Of a stretch of DNA of 64,000 nt, positions 1 through 32,046 are shown piece after piece. A program made the position numbers and the translations under genes. Source of the DNA: an uncultured cyanobacterium (GTDB lineage: Bacteria; Cyanobacteriota; Cyanobacteriia; Cyanobacteriales; Cyanobacteriaceae); the NCBI GenBank assembly GCA_963710605.1, contig CAVQBA010000006.1, forward strand, positions 736,001-800,000, written 5' to 3'. The number at the start of each line of letters is the position of its first letter. The first letter of the stretch is position 1. The notes beneath the pieces were generated by a model. It saw only the letters and a list, made by a program, of their open reading frames with translations. It did not search any database and was not told the origin of the DNA.

Positions 1-28
1 GTTTTGTACTGCCAAACCATGATTTTCA

Positions 29-62
29 AGAATTGAGAATGGAGAATTGAGAATTGAGAATT
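29..62. repeat. Heptamer tandem repeat (GAGAATT/GGAGAAT), STRR-like
   Basis: About 5 imperfect copies; the same unit recurs at 17898-17958 and 58943-59020. Confidence 0.8.
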
Positions 63-215
63 ATCTCTGACATGAAAAGAAGAAGAAGATTGATTGCTAC
101 TTTTTTTTCTTGTTTCTTTTTTTCAAGTAGAGGCTTTAAACCTTAATAATACAGTAATTAATAATTAATCATGAATAATTAAGAAGATTTTGTCAAAGTT
201 TGCTCTTTTAAAAAA

Positions 216-554
216 CTAGAATTTTTTATTCTTACTTAAATTTTTACTCCAAACACTGGTAATTAAGGCAAAACAAGTAATTAGATAAGTAGTGGTTAGT
301 ATCCCATTCATGTATAGTAATTTGAGTGACCATAAATCCCCACTGAGATTCCCACCGAGGCTAAGACTACTATAAATAATTAACCAGATTAAAGTTACTC
401 TAACTGATAAACGACTAGTTTTAATTTCTTGAGAGTCTAAATTGTTAGATGATTTGTTCGCTAATCTAATTCCTGCCCAGATAGCACCGACAAAAGGCAT
501 GAGATACAGAGATAGTTGAAGTTTATCTAAATTGTCTTGACGATCGTCTTTCAT
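216..554 (-). CDS. Small membrane protein, hypothetical
   Basis: 112-aa ORF with about 3 hydrophobic segments, just downstream of smpB. Confidence 0.7.
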   Translation of the reverse strand: MKDDRQDNLDKLQLSLYLMPFVGAIWAGIRLANKSSNNLDSQEIKTSRLSVRVTLIWLIIYSSLSLGGNLSGDLWSLKLLYMNGILTTTYLITCFALITSVWSKNLSKNKKF

Positions 555-587
555 AGCTAAATTATGATTAATAATAACATCGATCGA

Positions 588-1052
588 TTAAAAACGTTTC
601 ATTGCCCGAGCCATTTCTCTTTGGTCATCTCTACGCTTGACTGTTTCTCGTTTATCATGAAGTTTTTTACCTTTACCAACTCCTAGAAGTACTTTAACCC
701 AATCTTTTTTAAAATACATTTTTAAAGGTACTAAAGTCAAACCTTTTTCTTGTAATGAACCGATTAACTTATTGATTTCTTTTTTGTGTAATAATAATTT
801 ACGATCGCGTGTAGGTTCGTGATTAAAATACTTACCGCTGATCTCATAAGGCGAAATATGCACATTAGCCAACCAAGCTTCACCATCACGAATAAAAGCA
901 TAACCATCACGTAAATTTACTCTACCCGCACGGATTGATTTTACTTCCGTACCGACTAATTCAATACCAGCTTCGTAAGTATCGCTAATATGATACAAAT
1001 ATCTTGCTTGACGATTGTCACTGATAGCTTTTGTACGGGATTTATCACTCAT
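588..1052 (-). CDS. smpB: SsrA-binding protein SmpB
   Basis: NRQARYLY, EAGIELVGTEVKSIR, RKLLLHKKEI and GKGKKLHDKR motifs. Confidence 0.98.
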   Translation of the reverse strand: MSDKSRTKAISDNRQARYLYHISDTYEAGIELVGTEVKSIRAGRVNLRDGYAFIRDGEAWLANVHISPYEISGKYFNHEPTRDRKLLLHKKEINKLIGSLQEKGLTLVPLKMYFKKDWVKVLLGVGKGKKLHDKRETVKRRDDQREMARAMKRF

Positions 1053-1198
1053 TCAACCAGACCAATTAAAACGTAAATATTTTTGTAATTTCAAACAGTT
1101 TTTCTATTATAACGACAAATCAAAGAGATTAGGAAACAAAATATTTTTAGTCAAGGGATTTACTTACTTTTTGCTTTGATTTACTTGAAAAATAAAAC

Positions 1199-1307
1199 TA
1201 TAGCAATTATTAGTATTATGAAGTGCTTGCTCGATCCCCCTAAATCCCCCTTGACAAGGGGGACTTACAAATATAAACCGGACCTTATAAATGTGGGAAA
1301 CGCTATA
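1199..1307. repeat. MITE-like element with TATAGC...GCTATA ends around a GATCCCCCTAAATCCCCCTTGACAAGGGGGACTT hairpin
   Basis: Related copies at about 34947-35020, 37872-37905 (inverted), 40138-40172 and 41263-41340 (inverted). Confidence 0.65.
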
Positions 1308-1385
1308 TCATATTAAATAAATGTTAGATAATCGAACACCTTTAAAAATAACTGACCGTTTATTGGTCAAACTACTTTTCAATTC

Positions 1386-3102
1386 TTATCTACTTCTTTG
1401 CCACCATGTTGTGATAGCGGCGACTAAACTCAAAGCAGGAATAATTAAAAGTGCTAACCAACTAATTAAAATCGATTTGTTTCTACTCATATTCAAACGG
1501 CGATTAGTGGCTTGTTTAGGACTTATTGAAAGGGTTTGCTCGTTTTCGTTAGCTAACCAAGCGATCGAATTTAAGAAAAAATCACTATTGAGTTGTTGCC
1601 CAAACCAACCATCGGTGGCAAAATTACTATTACCAATTACAATCATTTTTTGAGTTGGTTGATTGTTGGTAATATTTTGCTCTGGAATTGCTGGTTTTTA
1701 TTGGCTGATTCGGGGTTTTTAGATCAGGTGGTTCTGGCAAATCATTTCCTCCTAAAGCTAAATCAGGAGGTGTTTGTGTTGATGTGGGCGGAGTATCTAT
1801 ATTTGGTTCTACTTCTTGTTGTGATTGATTTTCAGGTGTTGATGTTGATTCTTCTGTCTTAGTTTTGACAGAGGCAACAGCTAAAACTAATGGTGGTGGG
1901 ATGTCTTCTGTGGGATTAAATTCGACATTTTGTTCTTCTAAATCTGTTTCGCCCCATGATTGGTTGGTGGTGATGAGTAGTGGCGTAGTTTCAATATTAG
2001 CCATAGCAGTGGTTATAATCGGTTTTGCCCAAGGAAGAATTACCAAGCCTTCATCAAAACCTGTGGTGATAGGATGATCATTATAATTAAGGATAATGCT
2101 AATTGAAGGACCAAAACCAAAGACATCACCTGTACCCGAAGAATCGATCGCTAAACTATCATTAAGATTAATTCCCCATTGATTTAAGATATCGCCTAAA
2201 CTATTAGTACTTTGAGCATTAGACATGAGCAATAAGTTACCGCCTCGATCGATATATTGCTCTATTTTTTCTTTTTGCACTTGAGATAATTGTCCTTCTC
2301 CATCACTAACTAACAAAATATTAGTTGTAGGAGGTACAAGAGGTGATGTGGTTAAATTAAGTGGTTCGACGATATAACCTCGTTGGCTTAAACTTTCTAC
2401 AAGTTGAGCAAAACTTGTTTCTCCTCCTTGTTGTAATAGAGGTTCGCCATTTCCTTGTAAAATAGAAATCGTTGCTTGATTTTCTTTTTGAATAAATGCG
2501 ATCGCTTCTGTTAATTTAACTTCAGAAAGTCGATTTTCAGCCGAGACAATTTGGACTAGTTTACTTCTATTTTCGTATTCGAGATACACATCACCATTAC
2601 GAGTAACATTAAATTTTTGAGCTAAACTAATATCAACTTGAGGATCAACAAATTGATATTCAAATAAATTATTTATAGCTTGATAATCTTCGAGTATTTG
2701 TTTGTCTATTTCATTAATTGGTCGATCGAAAACATATACCTGTAAAGGGGCAGGAAGATTTTTGACTAACTGTTGGGTTTGAGGAGAAAGTGTAAAAAGT
2801 TGGTTTTCGGTTAAATCAATCTTGAGAGGATATTTAATTGCTAAAAAATTAATTAAGATAATAATTAAGACAATTGAAGTAGCAGAAACTATACCGTTAG
2901 TTGCTACTTCAGTATAACGCATTTGCCAAAAGCCTTTACTAGTAGAAACAAATAAAACTAAACTTGCTATAATGCAACCTATACCGATAACGATCGTTGT
3001 GACAATAACAGCAGAAGAACTATTGATAATTTGAATCGTGACAATTCCGATAAAAAGTAAAAAGATTCCTAATAAAAAAAGAAGATTGATATATATTTTC
3101 AT
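1386..3102 (-). CDS. GldG-family ABC transporter auxiliary protein, split by a 1-nt frameshift at about 1695-1699
   Basis: IDLTENQLFTLSPQT, GNGEP and VIGNSNFA motifs plus a C-terminal TM helix; removing one A from the A5 run joins ORFs 1630-3102 and 1386-1646. Confidence 0.85.
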
Positions 3103-3458
3103 ATTTACTCTAAACAGTCAACTTTACCCCTAATAAGATACGATCGTTTTTTGGCAAAATTATTAACTATTAAACAAAAACAAATTAATAATATAGTCAT
3201 TTTATCTGAGTTATGAAAAGTATTGACATAGATATTAATAATTTAGCCTGTAAATTACTCTAATAGTTGATATTTAATCACTGAAGTATTTATGAATTAA
3301 TAGTATATATTTGTTAACATCATAGTGCAAATTAGGCTTTTAATTATTAAGCTAAGAAGAGAATAAATTTGATGAGTGAGAAGTAATAACTAATAAATAG
3401 AATTAATTAATCTGAATTTTTTTCCAATAGTCAACTACTCCACTATTTTTAATTGACA

Positions 3459-4613
3459 ATGGCAACTATTTTAATCATAGACGATGATCCTACAGTGCAA
3501 ATGCTTTTGAGTAGAGCATTAGCTAAAAGTGGTTATGAGATACAAATTGCTAAAAATGGATTAGAAGGATTAAATCTCGCCAATCATTTAAAACCCGCTT
3601 TAGTTATTTGTGATTGGTTAATGCCTGAGTTATCAGGTTTAGAAGTCTGTCAAGAGATTAAAAAAAATGCTGATTTAGCTACTACTTTTTTTATTTTAAT
3701 CACCTCTCGTGTTTCTATTCAAGATCGAATACAAGGTTTAGATGCCGGTGCGGATGATTTTATTTGTAAACCGATCGATTTACAAGAATTAAAAGCCAGA
3801 GTTAGGGCAGGCTTAAGGTTACACCAATTAAGTGAAGATTTACACAAACAAAAACTACTTCTAGAAACAGAATTAAACGAAGCCGCAGAATATGTCAGTA
3901 ATCTTTTACCTGAGCCTTTTGAGGATGAAAAACTTAAAGTTGATTTTCGTTTTATTCCTTCTCGACAATTAGGTGGTGATATTTTTGATTATTTTTACTT
4001 AGACCAAGAAAATTTTGTCTTTTATTTATTAGATGTTTCTGGACATGGTTTAAAAGCCGCTTTACCTTCGATTTCGATCGTTAATTTATTAAGAAGTCGT
4101 AGTTTGGGTAACACCAATTATGCCCAACCACGTGATGTTTTAGCACATCTGAATGATTACTTTCAAATGACTATTAAAAATGACAAATATTTTACTATCT
4201 GGTATGGAGTCTATAACACGATAACCCAGAAACTTACATTTAGTAGTGCAGGACATCCACCTTGTATTGCAATTCATCTATCAAACAATAATCAGCCAAA
4301 TACTTATCAACGTTTAAAAACAAAAGGTATTCCTATAGGTATGTTTCCTAACCTTACCTATCAACAATCAAGTATCTATATTTCAAATACTACCGATTTA
4401 TACTTATTTAGTGATGGAGTTTATGAAATTCATAATCAAGCTGAAGAACTATTAGGTCTCAATAACTTTATCGGAATTTTGCAACAAAGTCATCATAACT
4501 TGCCAGAAATTTTGACAACTCTTAATATTTATAGCAGTAATTCTTATTTTCATGACGATTTATCAATTTTAAAATTAAGCCTTAACAATTTACCAGTAAT
4601 GAGTAATGAGTAA
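3459..4613 (+). CDS. Response regulator receiver fused to a PP2C/SpoIIE phosphatase (RsbU-like)
   Basis: REC domain (IIDDD, CDWLMP, KP) followed by GGDIFD, DVSGHG, FSDG and DD motifs. Confidence 0.93.
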   Translation: MATILIIDDDPTVQMLLSRALAKSGYEIQIAKNGLEGLNLANHLKPALVICDWLMPELSGLEVCQEIKKNADLATTFFILITSRVSIQDRIQGLDAGADDFICKPIDLQELKARVRAGLRLHQLSEDLHKQKLLLETELNEAAEYVSNLLPEPFEDEKLKVDFRFIPSRQLGGDIFDYFYLDQENFVFYLLDVSGHGLKAALPSISIVNLLRSRSLGNTNYAQPRDVLAHLNDYFQMTIKNDKYFTIWYGVYNTITQKLTFSSAGHPPCIAIHLSNNNQPNTYQRLKTKGIPIGMFPNLTYQQSSIYISNTTDLYLFSDGVYEIHNQAEELLGLNNFIGILQQSHHNLPEILTTLNIYSSNSYFHDDLSILKLSLNNLPVMSNE

Positions 4614-4745
4614 CGTCTTAAGAAGAGGATTCGAGAATCTTAGACAGAAATATGTGAGTGTTTCTTTTCGCCTTCAAAAATGGTTACTGAGCGGATTTGA
4701 GAAGTTCACTGTATTACGTTGTCGAAACTCAGCATAAATTCTCAA

Positions 4746-5645
4746 TTATTCCCCTAGACTAATTACATCATGAAAATTATTATCTTCGATGTAACGAGTA
4801 CCACTACTAGTCATTTTGACAATATCAACAAAACGATAATCCCACAAAATATCTTCAGCTAGATAAATATGACGACTGTGAATTGTTTGTGATACTGTAG
4901 CATCAATACCAACTAAAGTGATAAATATTTGGTAATCTCCTTCAAGGAATGAATCTTTACTGATAGCAAACAAAGGGCTGTGTTCATCAATTGGGTGCAT
5001 AATAACCCATGTTAAAGCCAGAAAAGGACTTTCATTTCTAACTAAAGGTAAATCATAAAGACGACGCATTTTATGCCCTTCTTTAGTAATTTCATCGGGT
5101 AATAGCAAACTAACTCGAATTTGAGCTTCTACAATCCAGTTATTACGCATATTAGCAACCCTAAACATCAAAGTTGAAATACCATTGTAAGGGCAAACAA
5201 CAGCCACATTACTAAACATCATCCTTGCTGTCGGGCGAGAAAAACGAGCAAACATCAAACTTGTCGCCATTGCAATTAATAATAAACCAAATAAGACCTC
5301 GATCGAGACTAAAAGGTGTGCATAACGAGTTTGAGGATACATTGCACCATAACCGATAGTAGCCATTGTCTGGACACTAAAAGCAAAAGCATCAAAAAAA
5401 GAAACTGCACTTTCGTGAGAAATAGAATCAGGTTGCAGTAAATAAGCACAGGCAAAAATACTGTTGAGTGAAAAGTAAACTACAGTAATTAAACAGAGAA
5501 ATTGCCACAACGGGATAGTTAATAAAAAGTGATATATATCATCCCAATCAAAAAAAGTTTCTCCTAATTTAACAAACTTATCGCCTTTTTTTCTTACAAC
5601 AATTGTTTTTGGTTTATTTTGTTGTAAGCGTTTTTTTCGCCCCAT
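4746..5645 (-). CDS. Inward-rectifier potassium channel (KirBac-like)
   Basis: TMATIGYG selectivity filter, FARFSRP, HPIDEHSPL. Confidence 0.93.
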   Translation of the reverse strand: MGRKKRLQQNKPKTIVVRKKGDKFVKLGETFFDWDDIYHFLLTIPLWQFLCLITVVYFSLNSIFACAYLLQPDSISHESAVSFFDAFAFSVQTMATIGYGAMYPQTRYAHLLVSIEVLFGLLLIAMATSLMFARFSRPTARMMFSNVAVVCPYNGISTLMFRVANMRNNWIVEAQIRVSLLLPDEITKEGHKMRRLYDLPLVRNESPFLALTWVIMHPIDEHSPLFAISKDSFLEGDYQIFITLVGIDATVSQTIHSRHIYLAEDILWDYRFVDIVKMTSSGTRYIEDNNFHDVISLGE

Positions 5646-5666
5646 TTTGTTTTAAAAAATTGTAGA

Positions 5667-7892
5667 TTATTGTGGTAGTAAATTATGTTGAATCAGACAA
5701 ATTTGAGATGCCATTTGTTTTGCTTCTTTTTTATTTTTACCGTATCCTATTGATTTTAATGTTTTTTGATGGTGGATGAAGGTAAGTGTACAAACAAAAA
5801 GGTTGTCAATCTCTTCAAATTGATAACTTAGTTTATCTTCAGGATTTAGTTGCGATAATTCGTTTAATTGAGATACCCAATTGTTGACATTAGGTTGAGC
5901 AAACTTAGGAGTAAAATTAATTGACAACTGTGTATTATCTAAAACTGCTGAATCAATTTCTGCGACAGGTTGAGGTTGCTTGATTAATTGCTGATTAATA
6001 TATGCTTGAATATAAGCTAACGCCGCTTTTTGTTTAGCTTGGCTTTTTTTAGTATCTAACCTTGGTATTGGATGAGTTAAGCCATCAATATAACAATAAG
6101 CAGAGTATTGTTTGGTTTGGGCTAGATAATCAATTTGATAGTCAATTTGGGTATTAGTTAGTTGTGAATGAATAAAGACAACTGAAATACCATCTATATT
6201 TGGATAATCAAAAAACTGATTAATTTTGGCGGTAAACCAAATTTTGTATAAATCTTTTGGCGGTAGTTTTTCTATTCGTTGCTCGATCGCTTTTAATACG
6301 TTATCATCATTAAGATCTGATTTAAGATAACGATCGATTATTTTTGAGAACTCTTTATCATCAATATTAGCCTTATTTTTAATCTGATCAAGATTAGTTT
6401 TTGTTTTTGTTTTTGGTTCAATAGTTAAAGGTTTAGTGATTAAATTATCTTCAATGTATCCTTTAATTGTTGCTAAAGCCGCTTTTTGTTTTGCTTTACT
6501 TTTTTTACTGTCTGCGACGGCTTCAATCGTCGTCAACCCATCAAGATAACAATGACACAAATGTATTTGTTGCGATTCAATATGTTTGTAAGTATAACTT
6601 ACCACTGTATCGTCTAATTGAGATCTGACTAACAAGACTGAAACTGTATCTATCTCTTCTTGCCAAAAATCATTTATTTTACCGACAAACCAAAGATAAT
6701 AAAAATCTTTAGGTTGTAATTCTTTAACTCTTAATTTTAATTGAGGAATAATAGTTTTTATTGTTGATTGATTAACACAATATTTTATTAAGTCTGACAA
6801 CTCTTCGCTGGATACATTAGCTACTTTTAATCGTTCTAAATTACTATACTTATATTCTAATTCTTGTTTTCTTCTTCCTTTTAAATAATTAGCTTTATCT
6901 AATTTTAATTGATTAGTATAATCATTAATATAAGTACAAATATCGCTTAATTCTAATAATGAATAGGGGGAAGATTTTTTTTGAAGAATTTGTTTTAAAA
7001 TACGATGATTTACTAAATCGACAAAACGGCGTAAAGGACTAGTAAAGTGAGTATAATTAATTAAACCTAAACTAACGTGAGACTTTGATATCGGTTCGTA
7101 TTGAGCAGGCACTAAACAATGCCCCATGTTTTTAATCGCTAATTTAAAATTGAGTGTACCAACATCTTGGGTTCGATAGATGGCTTGAATATCTTTTTGG
7201 GCTAAAAAATCAGCGATCGTTTTATTAGTTAAAATCATCAATTCAGCAATTAATTGATGGGCGTTAATATTGTCTTTAATTAAATTACCATCTTCATCTA
7301 TATAACCTTCTTCAGTTAAAATTCCTGACTTTCCGCCTCTATTTTTACTTATCAATTGCGATATTTTTTGCAGATTACAAAGTATTTTATGCTCAGGAAT
7401 CTTTTGTGGATTTTGCAGAATATTTTCTACTTCTTGATAACTAAAAGCTTTTTTGTTTGTAAAAATTGTCTCTTTTATTTCATAAGAATTAATCTTACCG
7501 TGACGATCGATAATAAAAAAAACTGTCATCGCTAAAGTCGGTTTATCTTCATCTAGCGAGCCTAAATTCGTACTAATTTTATGAGGTAACATCGGTGTGG
7601 GTGGCTGAGTATGATATAAAGTTACCACTCTTTGATTTGCTTCTAAATCGATCGGTGAATCTTTATTTACTAATTCAGAGACATCAGTGATACTAACTTG
7701 TAATTCATATTTATCGTCATCAAGAGGGATTAACCAAATACCGTCATCTCTATCTACTGTCGTCATATCATCAATTGTTATTCCCCATACAGGTAAACGA
7801 TGATGATAGTCATTCAAATTCAAGTTTATTTTTTGAGCTTGTACAATATGTTGTTGATCAAATTTTCTAGGTAGAATATTCACTTTCATCAA
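5667..7892 (-). CDS. RNB (RNase II/R family) nuclease with three C-terminal dsRBD-like modules
   Basis: TIDDMTTVDRDDG catalytic motif and HFTSPLRRFVDL; C-terminal motifs SKKSKAKQKAA, TKKSQAKQKAA and GYGKNKKEAKQMAS. Confidence 0.85.
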   Translation of the reverse strand: MMKVNILPRKFDQQHIVQAQKINLNLNDYHHRLPVWGITIDDMTTVDRDDGIWLIPLDDDKYELQVSITDVSELVNKDSPIDLEANQRVVTLYHTQPPTPMLPHKISTNLGSLDEDKPTLAMTVFFIIDRHGKINSYEIKETIFTNKKAFSYQEVENILQNPQKIPEHKILCNLQKISQLISKNRGGKSGILTEEGYIDEDGNLIKDNINAHQLIAELMILTNKTIADFLAQKDIQAIYRTQDVGTLNFKLAIKNMGHCLVPAQYEPISKSHVSLGLINYTHFTSPLRRFVDLVNHRILKQILQKKSSPYSLLELSDICTYINDYTNQLKLDKANYLKGRRKQELEYKYSNLERLKVANVSSEELSDLIKYCVNQSTIKTIIPQLKLRVKELQPKDFYYLWFVGKINDFWQEEIDTVSVLLVRSQLDDTVVSYTYKHIESQQIHLCHCYLDGLTTIEAVADSKKSKAKQKAALATIKGYIEDNLITKPLTIEPKTKTKTNLDQIKNKANIDDKEFSKIIDRYLKSDLNDDNVLKAIEQRIEKLPPKDLYKIWFTAKINQFFDYPNIDGISVVFIHSQLTNTQIDYQIDYLAQTKQYSAYCYIDGLTHPIPRLDTKKSQAKQKAALAYIQAYINQQLIKQPQPVAEIDSAVLDNTQLSINFTPKFAQPNVNNWVSQLNELSQLNPEDKLSYQFEEIDNLFVCTLTFIHHQKTLKSIGYGKNKKEAKQMASQICLIQHNLLPQ

Positions 7893-7904
7893 AATTTAAA
7901 ATAT

Positions 7905-8867
7905 ATGAACAAATATCGTCTTTTAAATCTATCTATTTTTTATTTCTTTACTATAAATACGATCGTTTTGATTTTACTTTCTTTATTAGGATATTTAGGA
8001 AAGTACAATATGTATTTAGAATTACTAACAAATTTCAAATTGCAATTATTTTTATTATCTTTAATTATCTTAGTCTTTTTTCTTTTGAAAAGGCATTTGT
8101 TAGGAATATTTTTAGCTTCTTTTTGTCTTTTAATAAACTCATTAGTAGTTATACCTTGGTATATTGGTTCATCTAATTTGAACTACAACTATAACAGTGA
8201 TCTTAAAGTTCTTGTGTTCAATGTTTTACATAACAACAAAAAATATGCCAACACTATTTCATTAGTAGAAACAGAAGTACCTGATATTGCTGTGTTTTTA
8301 GAAGCCAAATCTAGTTGGGTTGAATCCTTAGAATTATTATCTCCTAATTATCAATACCATTTGAGTTACCCAAAGTTACAAATAGAAATTTATAGTCAAA
8401 TACCTTTAAATAATACTCAAGTTGATGTGTATGGAGATTACCGAGGTGTAGTGACATCAAACTTTAATATTGCCGGAAAAGAATTAGTATTTATTGCAAC
8501 TCACGCTTATCCTCAGCTTTATTATGGCGTAGAGGGTTTTCAAATCAGAAACGATCAATTACTACAAGGTATAGGTAATTATGTTAATCAAATCTCAAAA
8601 CCTGTCATTTTAGTAGGTGATTTGAATGCGACAATGTGGTCACCTTTTTATCAAGAAATGATTAAAAATTCAAAGTTAAAAAATGCTCGTCAAGGGTTTG
8701 GTATATTACCAACTCAATCAAGTATTTCTCCTGATATAAGTTGGTTATCCATACCTTTAGATCATTGTTTAATTAGCGAGAAGATTCAAGTAAAAAATAT
8801 CAAAACAATCAGTAATATGGGTTCAGATCATTTACCTTTAATTATCGAATTAGGAATCAGTAGTTGA
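7905..8867 (+). CDS. Membrane-anchored endonuclease/exonuclease/phosphatase (EEP) family protein
   Basis: N-terminal TM helices, VFNV, ILVGDLNAT, LDHCL, GSDHLP. Confidence 0.9.
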   Translation: MNKYRLLNLSIFYFFTINTIVLILLSLLGYLGKYNMYLELLTNFKLQLFLLSLIILVFFLLKRHLLGIFLASFCLLINSLVVIPWYIGSSNLNYNYNSDLKVLVFNVLHNNKKYANTISLVETEVPDIAVFLEAKSSWVESLELLSPNYQYHLSYPKLQIEIYSQIPLNNTQVDVYGDYRGVVTSNFNIAGKELVFIATHAYPQLYYGVEGFQIRNDQLLQGIGNYVNQISKPVILVGDLNATMWSPFYQEMIKNSKLKNARQGFGILPTQSSISPDISWLSIPLDHCLISEKIQVKNIKTISNMGSDHLPLIIELGISS

Positions 8868-9037
8868 TAATTAGTAATTGGTAAAAGGCTAGGCATGACG
8901 GCGTACTTCCTTCACCGCAAATGACTTCAGGTAAGCATGCAAAGGTAAATTTTGCTCGAGAACGTAGTACCACAAAATTAATTGGATGTAGTGATACTTC
9001 AAAGTTTTATTGTGAGCAGAAGCATTTTCTCTCGTCG

Positions 9038-9114
9038 AGGGTGTAAGCCGTCCTGGTGGACATCCCTTGCGGGCGTGTAGCATCTGAGCGGAATTCCACC
9101 GCTTACACCCCTGC
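9038..9114 (-). mobile_element. REP-like hairpin carrying a 53-nt structured insert (9050-9102)
   Basis: Minus strand reads GCAGGGGTGTAA|GCGGTGGA...TCCACCAGGAC|GGCTTACACCCT. Confidence 0.7.
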
Positions 9115-9313
9115 CTTTGAAGGGGAGGATTCGGGATTATACAAATAATTTTGCATAGGTACTTATAGCCAATTAAATAAATTTAAGATTTAATTCTCCT
9201 AATTATAGCTCATCATCAATAAAAAAATCTTGCTAATCCTAACATCCCCAAAATCCTGATTAAGACAATGAGGAATTAAGTTATTACATCTGTGGCATAT
9301 CTCAACTAATTAA

Positions 9314-11863
9314 TTAGAATTTTTCACCAATACCAAAGTGAATACGGCTATCACCTTCATCATTAATCGCATAATCAATCCGAATTGGTCCTACAGGGGA
9401 TTGCACTCTCACACCTAAACCGTAACCAAAACCATCACCATTTAAACCTCTAACTTTAGCAGGTTTACCGATAACCGAATCGGCTGTACCCAAATCAGTA
9501 CCATAATCAAAGAAAATAGCACCGCCTAGAAAAGAGATGATCGGAAAACGATATTCAGCAGTAGCTTGAAAATAAGCACGACCATTACCCAAATCTCCTT
9601 CACCATAACCTCTAACTGAGTTACTACCACCTAAAACAAAAGCTTCATAAGGAGGTAAATCACCGATTACAGTTCCAGCTTGAAAATTCAAAGCTAATGC
9701 TTGAGGTCCTTCAGTAAAATCAAAATTGATTAGTTGTAAAGGAAGATAATAACTATAACTAGCACGCAGACGGTTATATAAAATACCTGTAAGAGGAATT
9801 GTTTGTTCTGAACCTAAAAGTAATAAACTACCACTAGTAGGACGTAAGGAACTATTACGAGTATCTTGAGAAGCATTTAATCTTAAAGAGATGATATCAT
9901 CAACCCCACCATTGTTAAAAGCTAGTTTTTCTGAACCAAATCTATCGGCAGAACGACTAGAAGTATCTCCGTCTGAGTTTTGAATTTCGATGTGTTGATA
10001 TTGCAAACCAGCACTAACATTCCATTCGGCTTTTGTAAATGGATCGTCTGATAAAGGACGAGAGAAAGTTATACCTGCACCTGTACGAACGACTCTAGGG
10101 GTATCATCACCATTCTCGGTACGGATTGTATCTGTGTCGATACCATCATAAACTAAAGATATCGATCGACGACGGAAACCGTTGACAAAATAAGAAGTAC
10201 GGTATGGATCTCCTGCTATCCAAGGATCTCGGAAACTAAGGTCAAATAATAACTCTCTTTCTCCTAACTGAAATTCAGCACCGATCGTTTGATTGTTTCC
10301 ACCAAGGTTTTTTTCTTGATAACTGATTGTACCAAATAAGCCACTACTAGAACTAATCCCTGCACCTGCACCTAATGAACCAGTATTACCTTCAACTACA
10401 TCAACATTCATCACTACCTCAGCAGGATCTTCCCCTGGGCTAAAAGATAGTCTGACATCCTCAAAAATACCTAAACCAAAAATTCTCTGTAAATCTTGCT
10501 GAGCGGTGGTTCGATTAAAAGTATCACCTGGATCGAGTCGCATTTCTCTGGTGACAATAAAATCTCGTGTACGCCCGTCAACTTCTTCATCTTCTTCATT
10601 AAAAAATCGAACTTGAATATCTTCTATTTTCCCTTCAGCAATAACTAAAGTAACAACTCCATCATCACTAATTTGAGGTGCACCTACTACTTGAGCTAAA
10701 TCATAACCGTTGTCGGTGTACCATTTATTAAGTTCGGTGATACCTTCTCTTAAATCCCGTAAATTCAATATCTCGTTATATTGATCAGCAAATGCTTCTT
10801 GAATTACTTCTTGGGGTATTAGATAATTGTTTTCCGTATTTTCAGGGATTGTTTGAATAGTAACTCGATTTAAAATTGGGTTGGGTTCAACCTGATAAGT
10901 AATTCTGACCCCAAATTGTGTATCTTCTGGAGTTACATTAACATTACTAAAAAAACCTGTAGCGTAAATTGCTTGTACGTCTTGTTGTAGTCGAGAACGA
11001 GTGGTGGTGCGACCGGGGTTGGTTCTGATAGCATTATAAACTATATCTTCTAATTCCCCTTCTACTCCTGAAACGAATACTTCGGAGACTAATACTCTAG
11101 GTTCGCTTTCTTGTGTTTCTTCTGTATTTGTATTTTCTTGGGTGGGAGTGGGAGTTGTATTTTCTTGAGTTGTATCTTCTTGAGTTGGTATTGTATTTTC
11201 TTGAGTTGGTATTGTATCTTCTTGAGTTGGTATTGTATCTTCTTGAGTTGGTATTGTAGTTGGGTTTGTATTCTCTTGGATTTGAGTAATAATTAAGTTA
11301 ACTGCTGAGGATGAAGTATTTTCGTTTAACTGTTGATCTGTTTGTGTAACAACTACAGGATCATTTTCAGCTAATTGTGACTCTAACTCAGTCGTATTAG
11401 TCTGATCACTAACTATTTCTACTTCAGCAGTATTAGTCGTCGTAACCTCGATCGTTTCTGTAACAACTACAGGGTCATTTTCAGCTAATTGTGATTCTAA
11501 CTCAGTCGTATTAGTCTGATCACTTACTATTTCTACTTTAGCAGTATTAGTTATCACCTCTACTTCTACTGATTCGATCGAGTTTGATGTTGTTTGTGTA
11601 GATGAAGAGACAGGAATCTCGATACTTTGAGCGGAGGTTTGCTCTTCGGGGTTTACGAATGGTGTCGCAAAGACGATCGTATTATGAGCTAAAGTTAAAG
11701 TTAAACTTCCAAGTATTGTCGCAACCGCTTTTTGTTGCCATTGAGAATTTAAGTTAACTAAACTAGATCTATTTTTTTTATTCAGTTTAGATGGCGACGA
11801 AATATTCATCGGCAAATCATTTTTAGCCTTCTTGCTTTTCTGTTTGTTGTTGTTCACTACCAC
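9314..11863 (-). CDS. bamA: Omp85/BamA outer-membrane assembly factor with a long repetitive N-terminus
   Basis: POTRA segments, LGGSNSVRGY, SPVGPIRIDYA, C-terminal HFGIGEKF. Confidence 0.93.
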   Translation of the reverse strand: MVVNNNKQKSKKAKNDLPMNISSPSKLNKKNRSSLVNLNSQWQQKAVATILGSLTLTLAHNTIVFATPFVNPEEQTSAQSIEIPVSSSTQTTSNSIESVEVEVITNTAKVEIVSDQTNTTELESQLAENDPVVVTETIEVTTTNTAEVEIVSDQTNTTELESQLAENDPVVVTQTDQQLNENTSSSAVNLIITQIQENTNPTTIPTQEDTIPTQEDTIPTQENTIPTQEDTTQENTTPTPTQENTNTEETQESEPRVLVSEVFVSGVEGELEDIVYNAIRTNPGRTTTRSRLQQDVQAIYATGFFSNVNVTPEDTQFGVRITYQVEPNPILNRVTIQTIPENTENNYLIPQEVIQEAFADQYNEILNLRDLREGITELNKWYTDNGYDLAQVVGAPQISDDGVVTLVIAEGKIEDIQVRFFNEEDEEVDGRTRDFIVTREMRLDPGDTFNRTTAQQDLQRIFGLGIFEDVRLSFSPGEDPAEVVMNVDVVEGNTGSLGAGAGISSSSGLFGTISYQEKNLGGNNQTIGAEFQLGERELLFDLSFRDPWIAGDPYRTSYFVNGFRRRSISLVYDGIDTDTIRTENGDDTPRVVRTGAGITFSRPLSDDPFTKAEWNVSAGLQYQHIEIQNSDGDTSSRSADRFGSEKLAFNNGGVDDIISLRLNASQDTRNSSLRPTSGSLLLLGSEQTIPLTGILYNRLRASYSYYLPLQLINFDFTEGPQALALNFQAGTVIGDLPPYEAFVLGGSNSVRGYGEGDLGNGRAYFQATAEYRFPIISFLGGAIFFDYGTDLGTADSVIGKPAKVRGLNGDGFGYGLGVRVQSPVGPIRIDYAINDEGDSRIHFGIGEKF

Positions 11864-11906
11864 ACACCAATTATTAATTTTTAGGTAATATAAAGATTTA
11901 AAGATA

Positions 11907-12683
11907 CTAGCTATTTTTTAGCTTTTGAATTTGAGTTAATACTCTTTGTTGAACTTGTTCATAAGCAGATTCAATTTCACCTAAATCACGACGAAAGCGA
12001 TCTTTGTCTAAGACTCTTTTAGTTGTATCTTGTTCCGTGGCATCCCACAAGCGACAAGTATCAGGGCTAATTTCATCTGCTAAAATAATTTTATTTTGGT
12101 TATTAAAACCAAATTCTAGCTTAAAATCAACTAATATTATTCCGCACAAAGCAAAAAACTCTTCTAAATGCTGATTTATTACTAAAGCGTAATCTTTTAA
12201 TTGTTTTATTTGATCATTAGATACTATATTTAATAAATCAAGACGATCGTAAGTTAATAACGGATCATTTAATTCATCATTTTTGAGATAAAATTCAACT
12301 AAAGGAGAAGACAGTTTTGTCCCTTCGATAATACCTGTTTGTCGGCACAAACTACCTGCGGCGATATTTCTAATTACAACTTCGAGGGGAATAATATCAA
12401 CTGCTTGAACAAGCATTTCTCTTGGTGATGTTTGTTCAATAAAATGAGTTGGAATATTTTTGGTGTCTAGTAATTGTAATAAAGCAGAAGAGATAGTACA
12501 ATTGATTTCTCCCTTACCAACGATCGTACCTTTTTTTTGAGCATTAAAAGCGGTAGCATCGTCTTTAAAATAGGTAAGATAGACTTGCTCGGTATCTGTA
12601 GCATAGACAATTTTTGCCTTGCCTTCATATAATTTAGCAGAAGTTGTCATATTCCCCAATTGTTTCTGATAACAAAGATTCAC
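11907..12683 (-). CDS. purC: SAICAR synthetase (likely start 12650)
   Basis: LYEGKAK, DDATAFNAQKK, DFKLEFG, ADEISPDTCRLWD, DKDRFR. Confidence 0.97.
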   Translation of the reverse strand: MNLCYQKQLGNMTTSAKLYEGKAKIVYATDTEQVYLTYFKDDATAFNAQKKGTIVGKGEINCTISSALLQLLDTKNIPTHFIEQTSPREMLVQAVDIIPLEVVIRNIAAGSLCRQTGIIEGTKLSSPLVEFYLKNDELNDPLLTYDRLDLLNIVSNDQIKQLKDYALVINQHLEEFFALCGIILVDFKLEFGFNNQNKIILADEISPDTCRLWDATEQDTTKRVLDKDRFRRDLGEIESAYEQVQQRVLTQIQKLKNS

Positions 12684-12725
12684 ATATCACAATATCACAA
12701 TTTAGAATTCGGAATTCGGAAACAA

Positions 12726-12762
12726 TTAACTCTTAACTCTTAACTCTTAACTCTTAACTCTT
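12726..12762. repeat. Heptamer tandem repeat (TTAACTC)x5
   Basis: Directly visible; related arrays at about 17964-18000, 50880-50913 and 58218-58250. Confidence 0.85.
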
Positions 12763-12765
12763 ATC

Positions 12766-13706
12766 ATGCGTCCATTAAAAGAATTAACAGGGCAACGATT
12801 AGCCGTCGAACTATTAGAAAGAAGCAAAAATAATCAAAAAATTGCTCCTGCTTATTTATTTGTGGGCCAGAAGGTGTCGGTAAAGCCCTTGGTGCTAGAA
12901 TGTTTGCACGAATGTTATTAATTAATGCCAATGAAGATTATCAGACTGCATCTGTCAAACTCGATCGAGGTAATCATCCTGACTTTTTATGGGTTGAACC
13001 AACTTATAGCGAAAAAGGGGAGTTATTAACCGTTACTCAAGCTCAAGACAAAGGAGTAAAACGTAAAACCGCCCCCCGTATCAGAATTGAGCAAATCCGA
13101 GAAATTAGCCAGTTTTTAAGTCGTCCTCCTTTAAAATCAGAACGGTGCTTGGTGGTAATAGAATCGGCTCAACTAATGGCAGAATCGGCAGGAAATGCTT
13201 TATTAAAAACCTTAGAAAATCCCGGAAAAGCCACGATAATTTTAATCGCCGAAAGTAGTGATTCTATCTTGTCAACTTTAGTTTCTCGTTGTCAAAAAAT
13301 ACCCTTTTATCGTTTGAGCGAACAAAACCTCGAAATGGTTTTATCTCGTGCTAATTTTGCTGAAGTGATGGATTATCCTCAATTAATTAAACTAGCTCAG
13401 GGTTGCCCCGGTAAAGCGATTCGTTATTGGCAAAACTTAAAACAAGTACCGAGTGAATTATTGAATCAATTAAAAACATATCCTGATGATGTGATGACTG
13501 GATTTGATTTAGCCAAGCAAATTAGTAGTAGTTTAGAATTAGAATTGCAAATTTGGCTAGCTGATTACTTACAGTGGTTGTATTGGGAAAAAAAATATTC
13601 TGTTGATTTAATCGAAAGATTAGAAAATAGTAAGAAACTTCTACAACGTTATGTACAACCGAGGCTGGTTTGGGATTGCTTTTTTTTGGCTCAGAATAAA
13701 TATTAA
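12766..13706 (+). CDS. holB: DNA polymerase III delta' subunit, with a 1-nt deletion at about 12864-12868
   Basis: ATG at 12766 gives MRPLKELTGQRLAV...APAYLFVG; adding one base restores GPEGVGK in frame with HPDFLWVEP, NALLKTLE and SRCQ. Confidence 0.9.
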
Positions 13707-29790: not shown

Positions 29791-32046
29791 ATGGAGTTTT
29801 CAATCGCTACAATACTGTCTCTTCTAAACCCTGAGAAACTAGTACCGGGAAAAGCACTAGAAAAAAAATTAGGCTGTGAAGATGAGCAAGAAATAGAAAA
29901 ACTGCAAATAGCCCTCGATGTATTAGAAAAAATTGGCGTTGTCACCAAGGAATTCGGTAAATATCGTCGTTTAGTCGAAGATGATGTCGTTGAAGCTAAG
30001 TTGCGTTGTTCGAGTAAAGGTTTTTGTTTCGCTATTCAAGATGAGGAGGATGCAGATGATATTTATATCCGTGAAACTCATTTAAGTAATGCTTGGAATA
30101 GCGATCGAGTTTTGGTGAGAATTATTAAAGAAGGCACTCGTCGTCGCTCCCCTGAAGGAGAGGTTAAATTAATTTTAGAAAGAGCAAATCCTTCTGTTTT
30201 AGCCAGAGTAGTCGAAGACGAAACCAAACAACATTTAGCCGTACCTCTAGACGATCGTTTGTTGTTTGAATTAAAATTGAAACAAAATGGACTACAAATA
30301 GATGATGCAGTTAATCATTTAGTTCATGTTAATATTTTGCGTTATCCCATCGGGCAAAATCCTCCCTTAGGTAAAGTTGTCAAAATCTTAGGTAGTGATG
30401 CAGAAACTGCCGCCGATACTGATATTGTCTCTTCTAAACACGATTTACCTCAAGAATTTCCCGATCGAGTTTTACAACAAGCGGCTAAAATTGATCCCAG
30501 TATTAGTGAAGAAGAAATCGCAAAAAGAGTAGATTTAAGAGATATTTTAACGATTAGTATCGAACACGATGTTTCTCAAGAGTTAGATTTGTTTGTGGAA
30601 AATGCTCTTACCTTACAACAAACCGAAGACAATAATTCTTGCTTAGGAATTCATATAGCTGATGTCGCTCATTTTATAGAAGCCGACACCCATTTAGAAA
30701 GAGAAGCCCGTAAAAGATGCACAACCGTTCATCTAGGGGACAAAATAATTGAGTTGTTACCTCAAGATGTTAAAAAATGTTGTTCTTTAGTACCAAATGA
30801 AGATCGTTTAGCCGTATCTGTTTTCTTTACTTTTGATGATAAAGGGCAAATTTTAGAATATCAAATCAAACCGACAATCATTAGATTAGATCATCAATTA
30901 ACATATAAAGATGTGCAGGCGATGATTGGTGAAGAAGAAAAAAACATCAAGCCTGAATTAAAAACAGCTTGGGAAATGCTTAATCATATAATCTTAAAAA
31001 TTAGTCCTTTAGTGAAAGCTCAAAGACTACAAAGAGGTGGTTTTGATATTAGCTTAGACCAAATTACCTCTTATTTTAAAGATGAAGGTAGGATAGGAGC
31101 GATCGCATCTTATTCTCGTTTACCAGTATTATCATTAATGACCGAATTAATGGTTTTAGTGGGAAAAGTTGTTGCTGAGCATTTAAATGCTTTACAAGTG
31201 CCGGGTATTTATTGCTCGCAAAGTAAACCAGATTGGGACGAGTTAGAAGACTTACTCAAATTAGTATCTAACCTGCAACTAGACTTTGAATTAGACTCAG
31301 AAGCCGAAATCCAATCTTTTGATTATTACCACTTAATCCAAGAATTTAGTAAATCTGAATACGATAAGGTATTACATTACCTATTGCTTAATTCTCTTAA
31401 ACCAAACAAATATATTCAACATCCCGCCCCTCATTTTGGTTTAGCTTACCCTATCTATACTCACTGTATTTCTCCTGGGCAACGTTTTATTGATTTACAA
31501 ATCCAAAGAGTCTTAAAAACCGTCTTTGAAGAAGGAAGAGATAGACGTAGCACAAGGGTAAAAAAAGGAGTTGACTTGTATAGTAATACCTGTCATGGGC
31601 AAATAGATTGGAATGTATTGCCTCCTGCAACCCAAAGTAACCTAGAAGCAGATTTACATTCACTAATTACTCATCTTAACGAAAGAGAAAAAATTGCCGC
31701 TGATGCCGAATCAGATTTAGCCGGGCTGAAAAAAGCCGAAGAAATGAAAGATAGAACAGGTAAAATCTTTAATGGTTTAATTACTGGTGTACAATCTTAT
31801 GGTTTCTTTGTGCAAATTGATGATTGTTTAGTCGAAGGATTAGTTCATGTTAGTTCACTCAAAGACGATTGGTATGAATATAACCTTAAACATACCTGCT
31901 TAGTTGGGCGTAAAAACAGAACAGCTTATCGTTTAGGTGATAAAGTAGATGTGGAAGTCAAAAGCGTTGATTATTATCGTCAACAAATTGATCTGGTTAC
32001 TGTTTGTGGTGGTAGCACAGCAGTTGATGAAGATTTTGAACACTGA
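29791..32046 (+). CDS. RNase R-like protein, Zam-type, with a degenerate catalytic motif
   Basis: HTH-CSD-RNB-S1 layout; ISIEHDVSQELDLFVENAL replaces TIDxxxxxDxDDA. Confidence 0.85.
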   Translation: MEFSIATILSLLNPEKLVPGKALEKKLGCEDEQEIEKLQIALDVLEKIGVVTKEFGKYRRLVEDDVVEAKLRCSSKGFCFAIQDEEDADDIYIRETHLSNAWNSDRVLVRIIKEGTRRRSPEGEVKLILERANPSVLARVVEDETKQHLAVPLDDRLLFELKLKQNGLQIDDAVNHLVHVNILRYPIGQNPPLGKVVKILGSDAETAADTDIVSSKHDLPQEFPDRVLQQAAKIDPSISEEEIAKRVDLRDILTISIEHDVSQELDLFVENALTLQQTEDNNSCLGIHIADVAHFIEADTHLEREARKRCTTVHLGDKIIELLPQDVKKCCSLVPNEDRLAVSVFFTFDDKGQILEYQIKPTIIRLDHQLTYKDVQAMIGEEEKNIKPELKTAWEMLNHIILKISPLVKAQRLQRGGFDISLDQITSYFKDEGRIGAIASYSRLPVLSLMTELMVLVGKVVAEHLNALQVPGIYCSQSKPDWDELEDLLKLVSNLQLDFELDSEAEIQSFDYYHLIQEFSKSEYDKVLHYLLLNSLKPNKYIQHPAPHFGLAYPIYTHCISPGQRFIDLQIQRVLKTVFEEGRDRRSTRVKKGVDLYSNTCHGQIDWNVLPPATQSNLEADLHSLITHLNEREKIAADAESDLAGLKKAEEMKDRTGKIFNGLITGVQSYGFFVQIDDCLVEGLVHVSSLKDDWYEYNLKHTCLVGRKNRTAYRLGDKVDVEVKSVDYYRQQIDLVTVCGGSTAVDEDFEH

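Follow-up and report, generated by a model that had tools for sequence, protein, structure and literature searches.

How does an exoribonuclease of the RNase II/R (RNB) superfamily choose and handle its substrates when its usual RNA-binding domains have been exchanged for double-stranded RNA-binding domains (dsRBDs)? The question is raised by one open reading frame (ORF) in a 64,000-nucleotide stretch of DNA from an uncultured cyanobacterium (contig CAVQBA010000006.1; the whole stretch is called the window below). In the characterized RNase II/R enzymes compared, cold-shock and S1 OB folds feed single-stranded RNA (ssRNA) to the RNB channel, and bacterial dsRBDs were essentially confined to RNase III among the structures and literature compared. 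In the product of this ORF, here called the RNB–dsRBD protein, the OB-fold RNA-binding domains (cold-shock domains CSD1 and CSD2, and S1) have given way to three dsRBD-fold domains in a flexible C-terminal array, two "extended" modules and one canonical dsRBD, in the order RNB, module 1, module 2, canonical dsRBD (Table 1). We propose, with a probability of roughly 0.55, that the protein is an active 3′–5′ exoribonuclease tethered by this array to duplex-containing RNAs, whose 3′ tails it would trim without unwinding the duplex. What is established is how the protein is built, with its catalytic residues intact, its dsRBD folds and a reduced tri-helix "wedge" in the catalytic domain, and how the family is distributed. 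Within a nuclease family that has been studied in depth, the protein is a clean example of accessory domains being replaced, and this natural combination of RNB, three dsRBD folds and a reduced wedge offers a test of what the catalytic and the accessory domains each contribute to substrate choice and duplex handling.

Residues are numbered from TTG 7892. The true start is probably ATG 7889, giving 740 amino acids, because homologs open with MK and the databases contain an identical protein of that length.

Catalytic domain and absent OB folds

The catalytic domain was identified with Pfam RNB (PF00773), which matched residues 38–244 and a second stretch (E = 2.4e-60, 204.9 bits against a cut-off of 29.3), and RNase R (8cdv_C) was matched at E = 7e-18 in a Foldseek search of the full model. 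Across a 40-sequence family alignment D41, D47, D49, D50, Y93 (Tyr clamp), R288/R289 (SPxRR) and H296/R297 were invariant, so that the acidic motif described as intact in the original prediction, which had been made by a model from the sequence alone, was borne out. The four aspartates align with D272, D278, D280 and D281 of Escherichia coli RNase R, as do the other catalytic motifs with their RNase R counterparts; a study of that enzyme (PMC5714204) names D280 as catalytic. The same Asp cluster, Tyr clamp and SPxRR motif are found in the homologous RNB domains of E. coli RNase R (5xgu), Bacillus subtilis RNase R/RNase II-type enzyme (8cdu) and E. coli RNase II (2ix0), and because the catalytic domain is shared with these enzymes, processive hydrolytic 3′–5′ exonuclease activity is expected. 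With the catalytic machinery intact, hydrolysis should be Mg2+-dependent, and we infer a catalytically competent hydrolytic 3′–5′ exoribonuclease of the RNase II/R (RNB) superfamily. It is extremely improbable that the protein has instead lost catalysis and serves as an RNA-binding protein like yeast Ssd1. Parts of the RNB domain have been trimmed away (positions ~230–275 of the Pfam profile are unmatched), and Ssd1 itself (7am1_A, E = 1e-13) was among the Foldseek matches, but the family-wide invariance of the four catalytic aspartates, the tyrosine and the SPxRR arginines speaks against a pseudo-nuclease.

No CSD, OB or S1 family was found in the protein at E ≤ 1 in Pfam and NCBIfam scans, and the full-length AlphaFold2 model contains no beta-barrel domain, in line with the absence of cold-shock and S1 domains noted originally. 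As a positive control, the same Pfam library detected CSD2, OB_RNB and S1 in a 751-amino-acid RNB paralog from the same genome; a second paralog, of 674 amino acids, carries CSD-like, wH and HTH domains. Scores against the RNase R and RNase II equivalog models fell far below their cut-offs (RNase R, TIGR02063, 184.9 against 597.85; RNase II, NF003455, 109.9 against 542; TIGR02062, 92.6 against 641.9). The protein thus belongs to the RNB superfamily, but its domains, its equivalog scores and its wedge set it apart from orthologs of RNase R or RNase II, which have CSD1, CSD2 and S1 where the present protein has a dsRBD-fold C terminus.

Table 1. Position of the RNB–dsRBD gene and its parts in the window
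Feature	Position	Strand	Basis or remark
Whole ORF	5667..7892	-	741 amino acids counted from TTG 7892; stop codon 5667-5669
RNB catalytic domain (residues ~29-311) and long C-terminal helix (312-349, 38 residues)	6846..7808	-	Pfam, Foldseek, AlphaFold2
Catalytic acidic motif D41-x5-D47-R-D49-D50 (TIDDMTTVDRDDG)	7743..7772	-	invariant in 40 family sequences
Remnant of tri-helix wedge region (residues ~244-263; 20 residues, one short helix)	7104..7163	-	phmmer, MAFFT, AlphaFold2
Module 1 (residues 352-492)	6417..6839	-	self-alignment, AlphaFold2, VIA-align, hhalign, Pfam
Module 1, three-helix subdomain (about residues 352-412)	6657-6839	-	AlphaFold2
Module 1, dsRBD-fold domain (about residues 413-483); KKSKAKQKAA opens helix alpha2	6444-6656	-	AlphaFold2
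Module 2 (residues 503-645), paralogous copy of matching topology; KKSQAKQKAA	5958..6386	-	self-alignment, AlphaFold2
Canonical C-terminal dsRBD (residues 668-741)	5670..5891	-	Pfam dsrm, AlphaFold2, ortholog motif

The tri-helix wedge and duplex handling

In E. coli RNase R the tri-helix wedge comprises residues 487–545, and its deletion abolished duplex unwinding while ssRNA binding and degradation were retained, according to the same study (PMC5714204). When the RNB–dsRBD protein was aligned to E. coli RNase R (5xgu) with phmmer, chain positions 410–463 were left unmatched. With a chain offset of 80, obtained from the alignment of D49/D50 to chain positions 200/201 with D280 taken as the catalytic residue, these correspond to residues 490–543 and so coincide almost exactly with the wedge. 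In a MAFFT alignment the wedge region held 20 residues in the protein and its close relatives and 35 in other branches of the family, against 61 in the RNase R-like paralog and 90 in two RNase R sequences, and AlphaFold2 predicted a single short helix there (249–256). In this regard the enzyme is a natural wedge-deletion form, its wedge reduced to about 15–20 residues.

As OB folds that could cap the channel are absent, the flexibly linked dsRBD array would have to capture the substrate. In the proposed mechanism the array would dock on an A-form duplex, such as a stem-loop, an antisense:mRNA duplex or a processing stem, while the RNB channel would thread and digest the single-stranded 3′ tail beside it. 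Digestion would be expected to halt at or near the duplex, since the unwinding wedge is missing, and would thus amount to trimming or end maturation unless a helicase or another nuclease assists. The dsRNA-targeted exonuclease envisaged originally was a reasonable reading of the architecture, but the reduced wedge argues for trimming beside duplexes, not for degradation of the duplexes themselves.

The protein could also be RNase R-like by other means, the array holding the duplex while the uncapped RNB domain degrades through double-stranded RNA (dsRNA) despite the missing wedge; it would then be the structured-RNA exoribonuclease of these cyanobacteria. In a review (PMC10989914) the existence of RNase R-like enzymes in cyanobacteria is called unclear, and the RNB proteins tested, Sll1290 and Alr1240, are said to degrade only unstructured RNA. 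Three dsRBD-fold domains would suggest long duplexes as the target, and the discussion in the RNase R study mentions that duplex RNA is degraded once the RNA-binding domains of that enzyme are removed (PMC5714204). We nevertheless regard this reading as unlikely, as almost nothing is left of the tri-helix region on which unwinding by E. coli RNase R depends and a scan of the flanking ORFs revealed no helicase motif or partner encoded nearby.

Dis3L2, a eukaryotic exonuclease whose targets are structured, uridylated RNAs, is likewise an RNB enzyme and engages hairpin substrates, and its hairpin–RNA structures (8e2a, 8e28 and 8e29) were among the Foldseek matches. Dis3L2 differs from the RNB–dsRBD protein in using CSD and S1 domains, in having no dsRBDs and in keeping the tri-helix region, which contacts RNA in that enzyme according to PMC5714204.

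The dsRBD array and its possible ligands

Of the three C-terminal domains, the last was recognized directly as the canonical-looking dsRBD that had been predicted. Pfam dsrm (PF00035) matched residues 672–733 (nucleotides 5694–5879) at E = 6.1e-11 and 43.2 bits against a cut-off of 23, its AlphaFold2 topology is H672-680 E687-695 E698-707 E710-718 H721-735 (H, helix; E, strand), and KKxAKxxA is invariant in this domain in 11 orthologs.

For the two preceding modules, alignment of residues 345–500 with residues 501–651 gave 38% identity across 133 residues (E = 4e-31), confirming the two copies of a ~130-amino-acid module reported before, with refined limits close to those first given. Like the RNB and dsrm matches, this repeat lies well outside what chance would give. 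For both modules AlphaFold2 predicted the alpha-beta-beta-beta-alpha fold, one of the points on which the original prediction could have been refuted; for module 1 modelled alone, confidence was high (predicted local distance difference test (pLDDT) 94.2, predicted template modelling score (pTM) 0.86). Module 1 consists of helices 362–374, 382–387 and 394–403 followed by H416-427 E431-438 E443-450 E459-461 H464-480; the dsRBD fold of module 2 runs H568-579 E583-590 E595-602 E611-613 H616-632. When the module 1 model was compared with 48,161 representative chains by VIA-align, 12 reached Z ≥ 8, and the matches listed were almost all dsRBDs (Z 9.1–6.4, 59–84 residues aligned). TRBP dsRBD3 was the best match (Z 9.1, root-mean-square deviation 2.9 Å, 84 residues), followed by ADAR1 dsRBD3 (8.8) and Loqs-PB (8.7), with R2D2, Staufen dsRBD5, Aquifex RNase III and HYL1 also present. 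Coverage extended over model residues ~49–139, i.e. protein residues 393–483, and model residues 1–48 were barely covered. A profile of 18 module copies aligned to a profile of 11 canonical dsRBDs with 94.8% probability by hhalign (E = 5.3e-8, 62 columns), and its sole match below E = 0.001 among PDB sequences was the dsRBD protein RDE-4 (6.2e-4). The extended module has no Pfam family of its own; module 1 gave sub-threshold matches to the dsRBD-like families Dicer_dimer (7.5e-4) and DSRM_2 (0.063), and no usable look-alike was found in the ESM Atlas. On the models and profiles, both modules contain a dsRBD fold and are homologous to dsRBDs at profile level.

The description of the C terminus as three dsRBD-like domains therefore stands as to fold, but each module is more than a dsRBD, having a conserved three-helix subdomain and keeping only the KKxAK motif. 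In RNA-binding dsRBDs, KKxAK opens helix alpha2 and is the phosphate-contacting element; the other canonical RNA-contact regions are a Glu in helix alpha1 and a His-containing (GPxH-like) beta1–beta2 loop. Across the 18 module copies, which came from 11 genomes, S366, R388, L392 and D396 of the helical subdomain were invariant, as was K464, the second Lys of KKxAK, and the Ala of this motif was nearly so. RNA binding by the modules is plausible but not assured, because KKxAK is kept and the other two contact regions are unrecognizable, and the polar residues conserved in the three-helix subdomain suggest that the modules have a further interaction surface.

Several observations weigh against the proposed tethering and trimming. 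The modules retain one of the three canonical RNA-contact regions: the position of the helix-alpha1 Glu is hydrophobic and the beta1–beta2 loop is short and without a GPxH-like His. This loop is very short even in the canonical C-terminal dsRBD, and the domains are not notably basic (isoelectric points 5.2–8.1). Pfam dsrm scored 20.5 bits on module 1, below its gathering cut-off of 23, and matched 6 of the 18 module copies at E ≤ 0.1, none of them reaching the cut-off, although these weak matches do accord with the predicted dsRBD fold. Foldseek gave no match of the module model to the PDB at E ≤ 0.001 (best, 0.045), the weak rows nonetheless ranking dsRBDs first in agreement with VIA-align. 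Among the VIA-align matches the Z values of RNA-binding and protein-binding dsRBDs were tied within 1, and TRBP dsRBD3, Staufen dsRBD5 and STAU1 SSM-RBD5 are domains known for binding protein, not RNA. Relative domain placement is uncertain in the full-length AlphaFold2 model (40-sequence alignment, pLDDT 85.1, pTM 0.59), in which residues 493–501, between the modules, and the 23 residues 647–669, before the dsRBD, form low-confidence linkers. The wedge argument is an analogy with a single enzyme, and the 674-amino-acid paralog is likewise short in this region (30 residues by MAFFT).

Some of these points would suit modules that are protein–protein or dimerization domains ("type B" dsRBDs) recruiting the nuclease to a partner such as RNase E, RNase III or the ribosome, with RNA bound by the last dsRBD alone, if at all. 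The best VIA-align matches include the TRBP dsRBD3–RPAP3 complex, the ADAR1 dsRBD3 dimer, Staufen dsRBD5–Miranda and the STAU1 SSM-RBD5 dimer. The modules lack two of the three canonical RNA-contact regions, and the invariant residues of the helical subdomain lie off the dsRBD. The conservation of the KKxAK lysine and alanine across the module copies tells against such a role, being unusual among purely protein-binding dsRBDs, and so do the closeness of the Z scores of the two kinds of dsRBD and the lack of a conserved neighboring partner gene in 10 relatives. In favor of it, another cyanobacterial RNB protein, Alr1240, binds RNase E according to PMC10989914. Recruitment through the modules appears rather improbable on balance, though not negligible.

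The RNB–dsRBD protein has features in common with two further groups of proteins. Bacterial RNase III is likewise a bacterial nuclease, and its dsRBD belongs to the same Pfam family; residues 666–733 of the RNB–dsRBD protein gave a weak match to the NCBIfam RNase III model (E = 9.5e-4), and the dsRBDs of Aquifex, Thermotoga and E. coli RNase III were among the structural matches of the module. RNase III differs in joining a dsRNA endonuclease domain to one dsRBD, where here an RNB exonuclease is joined to three dsRBD-fold domains. Eukaryotic TRBP, Loquacious, ADAR1 (dsRBD3), Staufen and DGCR8, in which extended dsRBDs also occur, are alike in carrying several dsRBDs on flexible linkers, and the full model aligned with TARBP2, Loqs-PB and MLE dsRBD1-2 in Foldseek (E = 1.6e-5 to 5.6e-4). 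These proteins differ in being non-catalytic cofactors or deaminases, and their sequence identity is 10–26%. The last helix of the N-terminal subdomain of the module was covered in the alignments with TRBP dsRBD3 and ADAR1 dsRBD3 (model residues 51–139); no counterpart was identified for the three-helix subdomain as a whole, in which Ser, Arg and Asp are invariant and which was not searched alone.

A bolder possibility, which we put forward tentatively, is that the RNB–dsRBD proteins add a third class, with a mechanism of its own, to the bacterial RNB exoribonucleases, one that selects its substrates by duplex geometry and acts as the cyanobacterial partner of RNase III and antisense RNA. The dsRBD array would here replace the single-strand grip of the OB folds, and the unwinding wedge would have been dispensed with. 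The 3′ tails on RNase III products, antisense:mRNA duplexes and rRNA processing stems would be measured, trimmed or cleared, and the three-helix subdomain, with its invariant polar residues grafted onto a dsRBD, might be an undescribed element for recognizing RNA ends or partners.

The family and its genomic setting

The first homolog search returned 55 close homologs (44–100% identity, E ≤ 1e-153), the named ones being from Geminocystis and Cyanobacterium, and beyond these the scores dropped sharply to ordinary RNase R (E ~1e-32). When the module region was searched with phmmer as a single sequence against 1.84 billion representatives, 7 proteins were found. The reading of a tiny clade that this result invited was overturned by a profile search, which showed a larger and divergent family. 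With a profile of diverse members, the best 120 rows (E ≤ 4.5e-175) all had RNB, with dsrm present or absent. Their organism names, taken like all those of family members from the source labels of the protein searches, included Crocosphaera (among them C. subtropica ATCC 51142), Gloeothece citriformis PCC 7424, Scytonema/Nostocales, Xenococcus, Phormidesmis, Leptolyngbya and Acaryochloridaceae, and one metagenome-assembled genome was labelled Crocinitomicaceae. The family thus occurs in culturable C. subtropica ATCC 51142, G. citriformis PCC 7424, Geminocystis and Cyanobacterium.

For a census of architectures, 172 family proteins were scanned with hidden Markov models built from the module and dsRBD alignments. 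One module was accompanied by one dsRBD in 61 proteins, by two in 46, by three in 4 and by none in 6; two modules were accompanied by one dsRBD in 51 proteins, by none in 3 and by two in 1. Several of the proteins without a dsRBD are labelled partial or are short. The same models gave no match in 65 ordinary RNase R controls. From the census and these controls, the constant core of the family is RNB with one extended module directly after it, and the dsRBD tail is variable (0–3). A pairwise identity matrix suggests that the module was duplicated independently in different lineages. Modules 1 and 2 of a Scytonema protein are 54% identical to each other and at best 31% identical to a module of another lineage, and the corresponding values are 37 and 36% for the homolog P0179 and 36 and 43% for the window protein, the last figure being with the single module of P0051.

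Taken together, these proteins form a sizeable uncharacterized cyanobacterial family with RNB followed by one or two modules and then zero to three dsRBDs. No description of an RNB–dsRBD enzyme was found in the literature searched, subscription-only literature lying outside the searches, which agrees with the original remark that no characterized example was known. The architecture is, however, neither rare nor private to the genome of the window: more than 170 database proteins share it, and public databases already carry it under generic labels, for instance "RNB domain-containing ribonuclease" or "ribonuclease II-like protein".

Among 401 genomes drawn evenly from the phylum, the module profile matched in 12, belonging to 9 of 156 genera (the single-sequence search matched in 11), and the RNB–dsRBD gene was present in all 6 other sampled genomes of the family to which the window belongs. 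The genome of the window has three RNB genes, which fits the two or three RNB proteins given for cyanobacteria in PMC10989914, where it is also called unclear whether any cyanobacterial RNB protein handles structured RNA. The RNB–dsRBD family is a testable candidate for the "third" cyanobacterial RNB enzyme, an open point in cyanobacterial RNA decay.

Short and split forms were represented by two short proteins, probably fragments, in a search that covered proteins up to 1414 amino acids. P0041 (489 amino acids) and P0122 (141 amino acids) are an N- and a C-terminal piece of a close homolog and both list a longest contig of 17,787 bases, so that they may be halves of a single gene that a frameshift or stop has interrupted in a metagenome relative. 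In two further two-module homologs, P0050 (808 amino acids) and P0052 (739 amino acids), the C terminus is a different, longer tail (...LLSTRLTKIREVATDPIVHH...) and not a canonical dsRBD.

In the window, a gene for a KirBac-type inward-rectifier K+ channel (IRK_C and Ion_trans_2; 4746–5645, minus strand) lies 21 nucleotides downstream of the RNB–dsRBD gene on the same strand, and a divergent gene of the endonuclease/exonuclease/phosphatase family (7905–8867, plus strand), whose product has a hydrophobic N terminus, lies upstream. Neither gene was found near the homolog in any of 10 relatives. In these relatives 38 of 76 flanking ORFs were scanned (the two nearest on each side), and they were mostly metabolic or housekeeping genes, encoding, among others, a dicarboxylate symporter, HisA/F, PdxA, CoaE, PBP2, Lgt and RecG. 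The neighbors in two distant relatives were Uma2 genes in one, and DUF3854 and HTH genes in the other. No family of PADLOC-DB 2.0.0 matched the RNB–dsRBD protein or its 5 neighbors.

This survey of architectures and neighborhoods, which had been suggested at the outset, bears on whether the protein defends the cell against phages or mobile elements by destroying foreign dsRNA. A patchy distribution across the sampled genomes and genera and recurrent domain duplication are frequent in defense genes, and the Uma2, DUF3854 and HTH neighbors of the two distant homologs could be read in the same way. The lack of PADLOC matches, the unconserved and mostly metabolic neighborhoods, a gene that stands alone without a sensor or partner gene, and its presence throughout its own family, as fits vertical inheritance, all speak against defense, which we consider very improbable; the defense role entertained in the original prediction thus found no support. 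Because of the missing PADLOC matches, the character of the neighbors and the 6/6 presence in its own family, the evidence points to a stand-alone gene of housekeeping RNA metabolism and not to a defense island.

Around the gene (4500–8300), 12 promoter-like sites were found against 21.5 expected, and the terminator scan returned no terminator-like site, including between the RNB–dsRBD and KirBac genes; these results do not define the transcription unit. A look-up of expression data listed no sequencing run for the gene. Rfam and tRNA scans over window positions 1–13000 gave no matches. The gene at 7905–8867 starts 12–15 nucleotides from the divergent RNB start, a gap so small that at least one of the annotated starts, or the promoters, must fall within coding sequence.

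Both the window (3453–4613, plus strand) and one relative from another genus have a response-regulator/SpoIIE (PP2C) phosphatase gene in the vicinity of the RNB–dsRBD gene (in the relative at locus L019, 4776–6791, plus strand), the two phosphatase genes sharing 46% identity over 261 amino acids. It was absent beside the homolog in the other 9 relatives, and the pairing, considered as conserved synteny, was judged residual or due to chance. In genome G198 an IS605 OrfB/TnpB-type gene (OrfB_IS605 and Cas12f1-like TNB; L018, 4699–5919, plus strand) lies two genes upstream of the homolog. The Uma2-family genes mentioned above, putative restriction endonucleases, are two in tandem (L024, 9021–10209, plus strand) directly downstream of a one-module homolog in genome G068.

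Elsewhere in the window, the 751-amino-acid RNase R-like paralog (29791–32046, plus strand; domains OB_RNB, CSD2, RNB and S1) has a degenerate catalytic region, reading SIEHDVSQELDLFVENA where the family motif is TIDxxTxxDxDD. His replaces the clamp Tyr and SPGQRF replaces SPIRRY, and this paralog may be catalytically impaired, i.e. a pseudo-nuclease.

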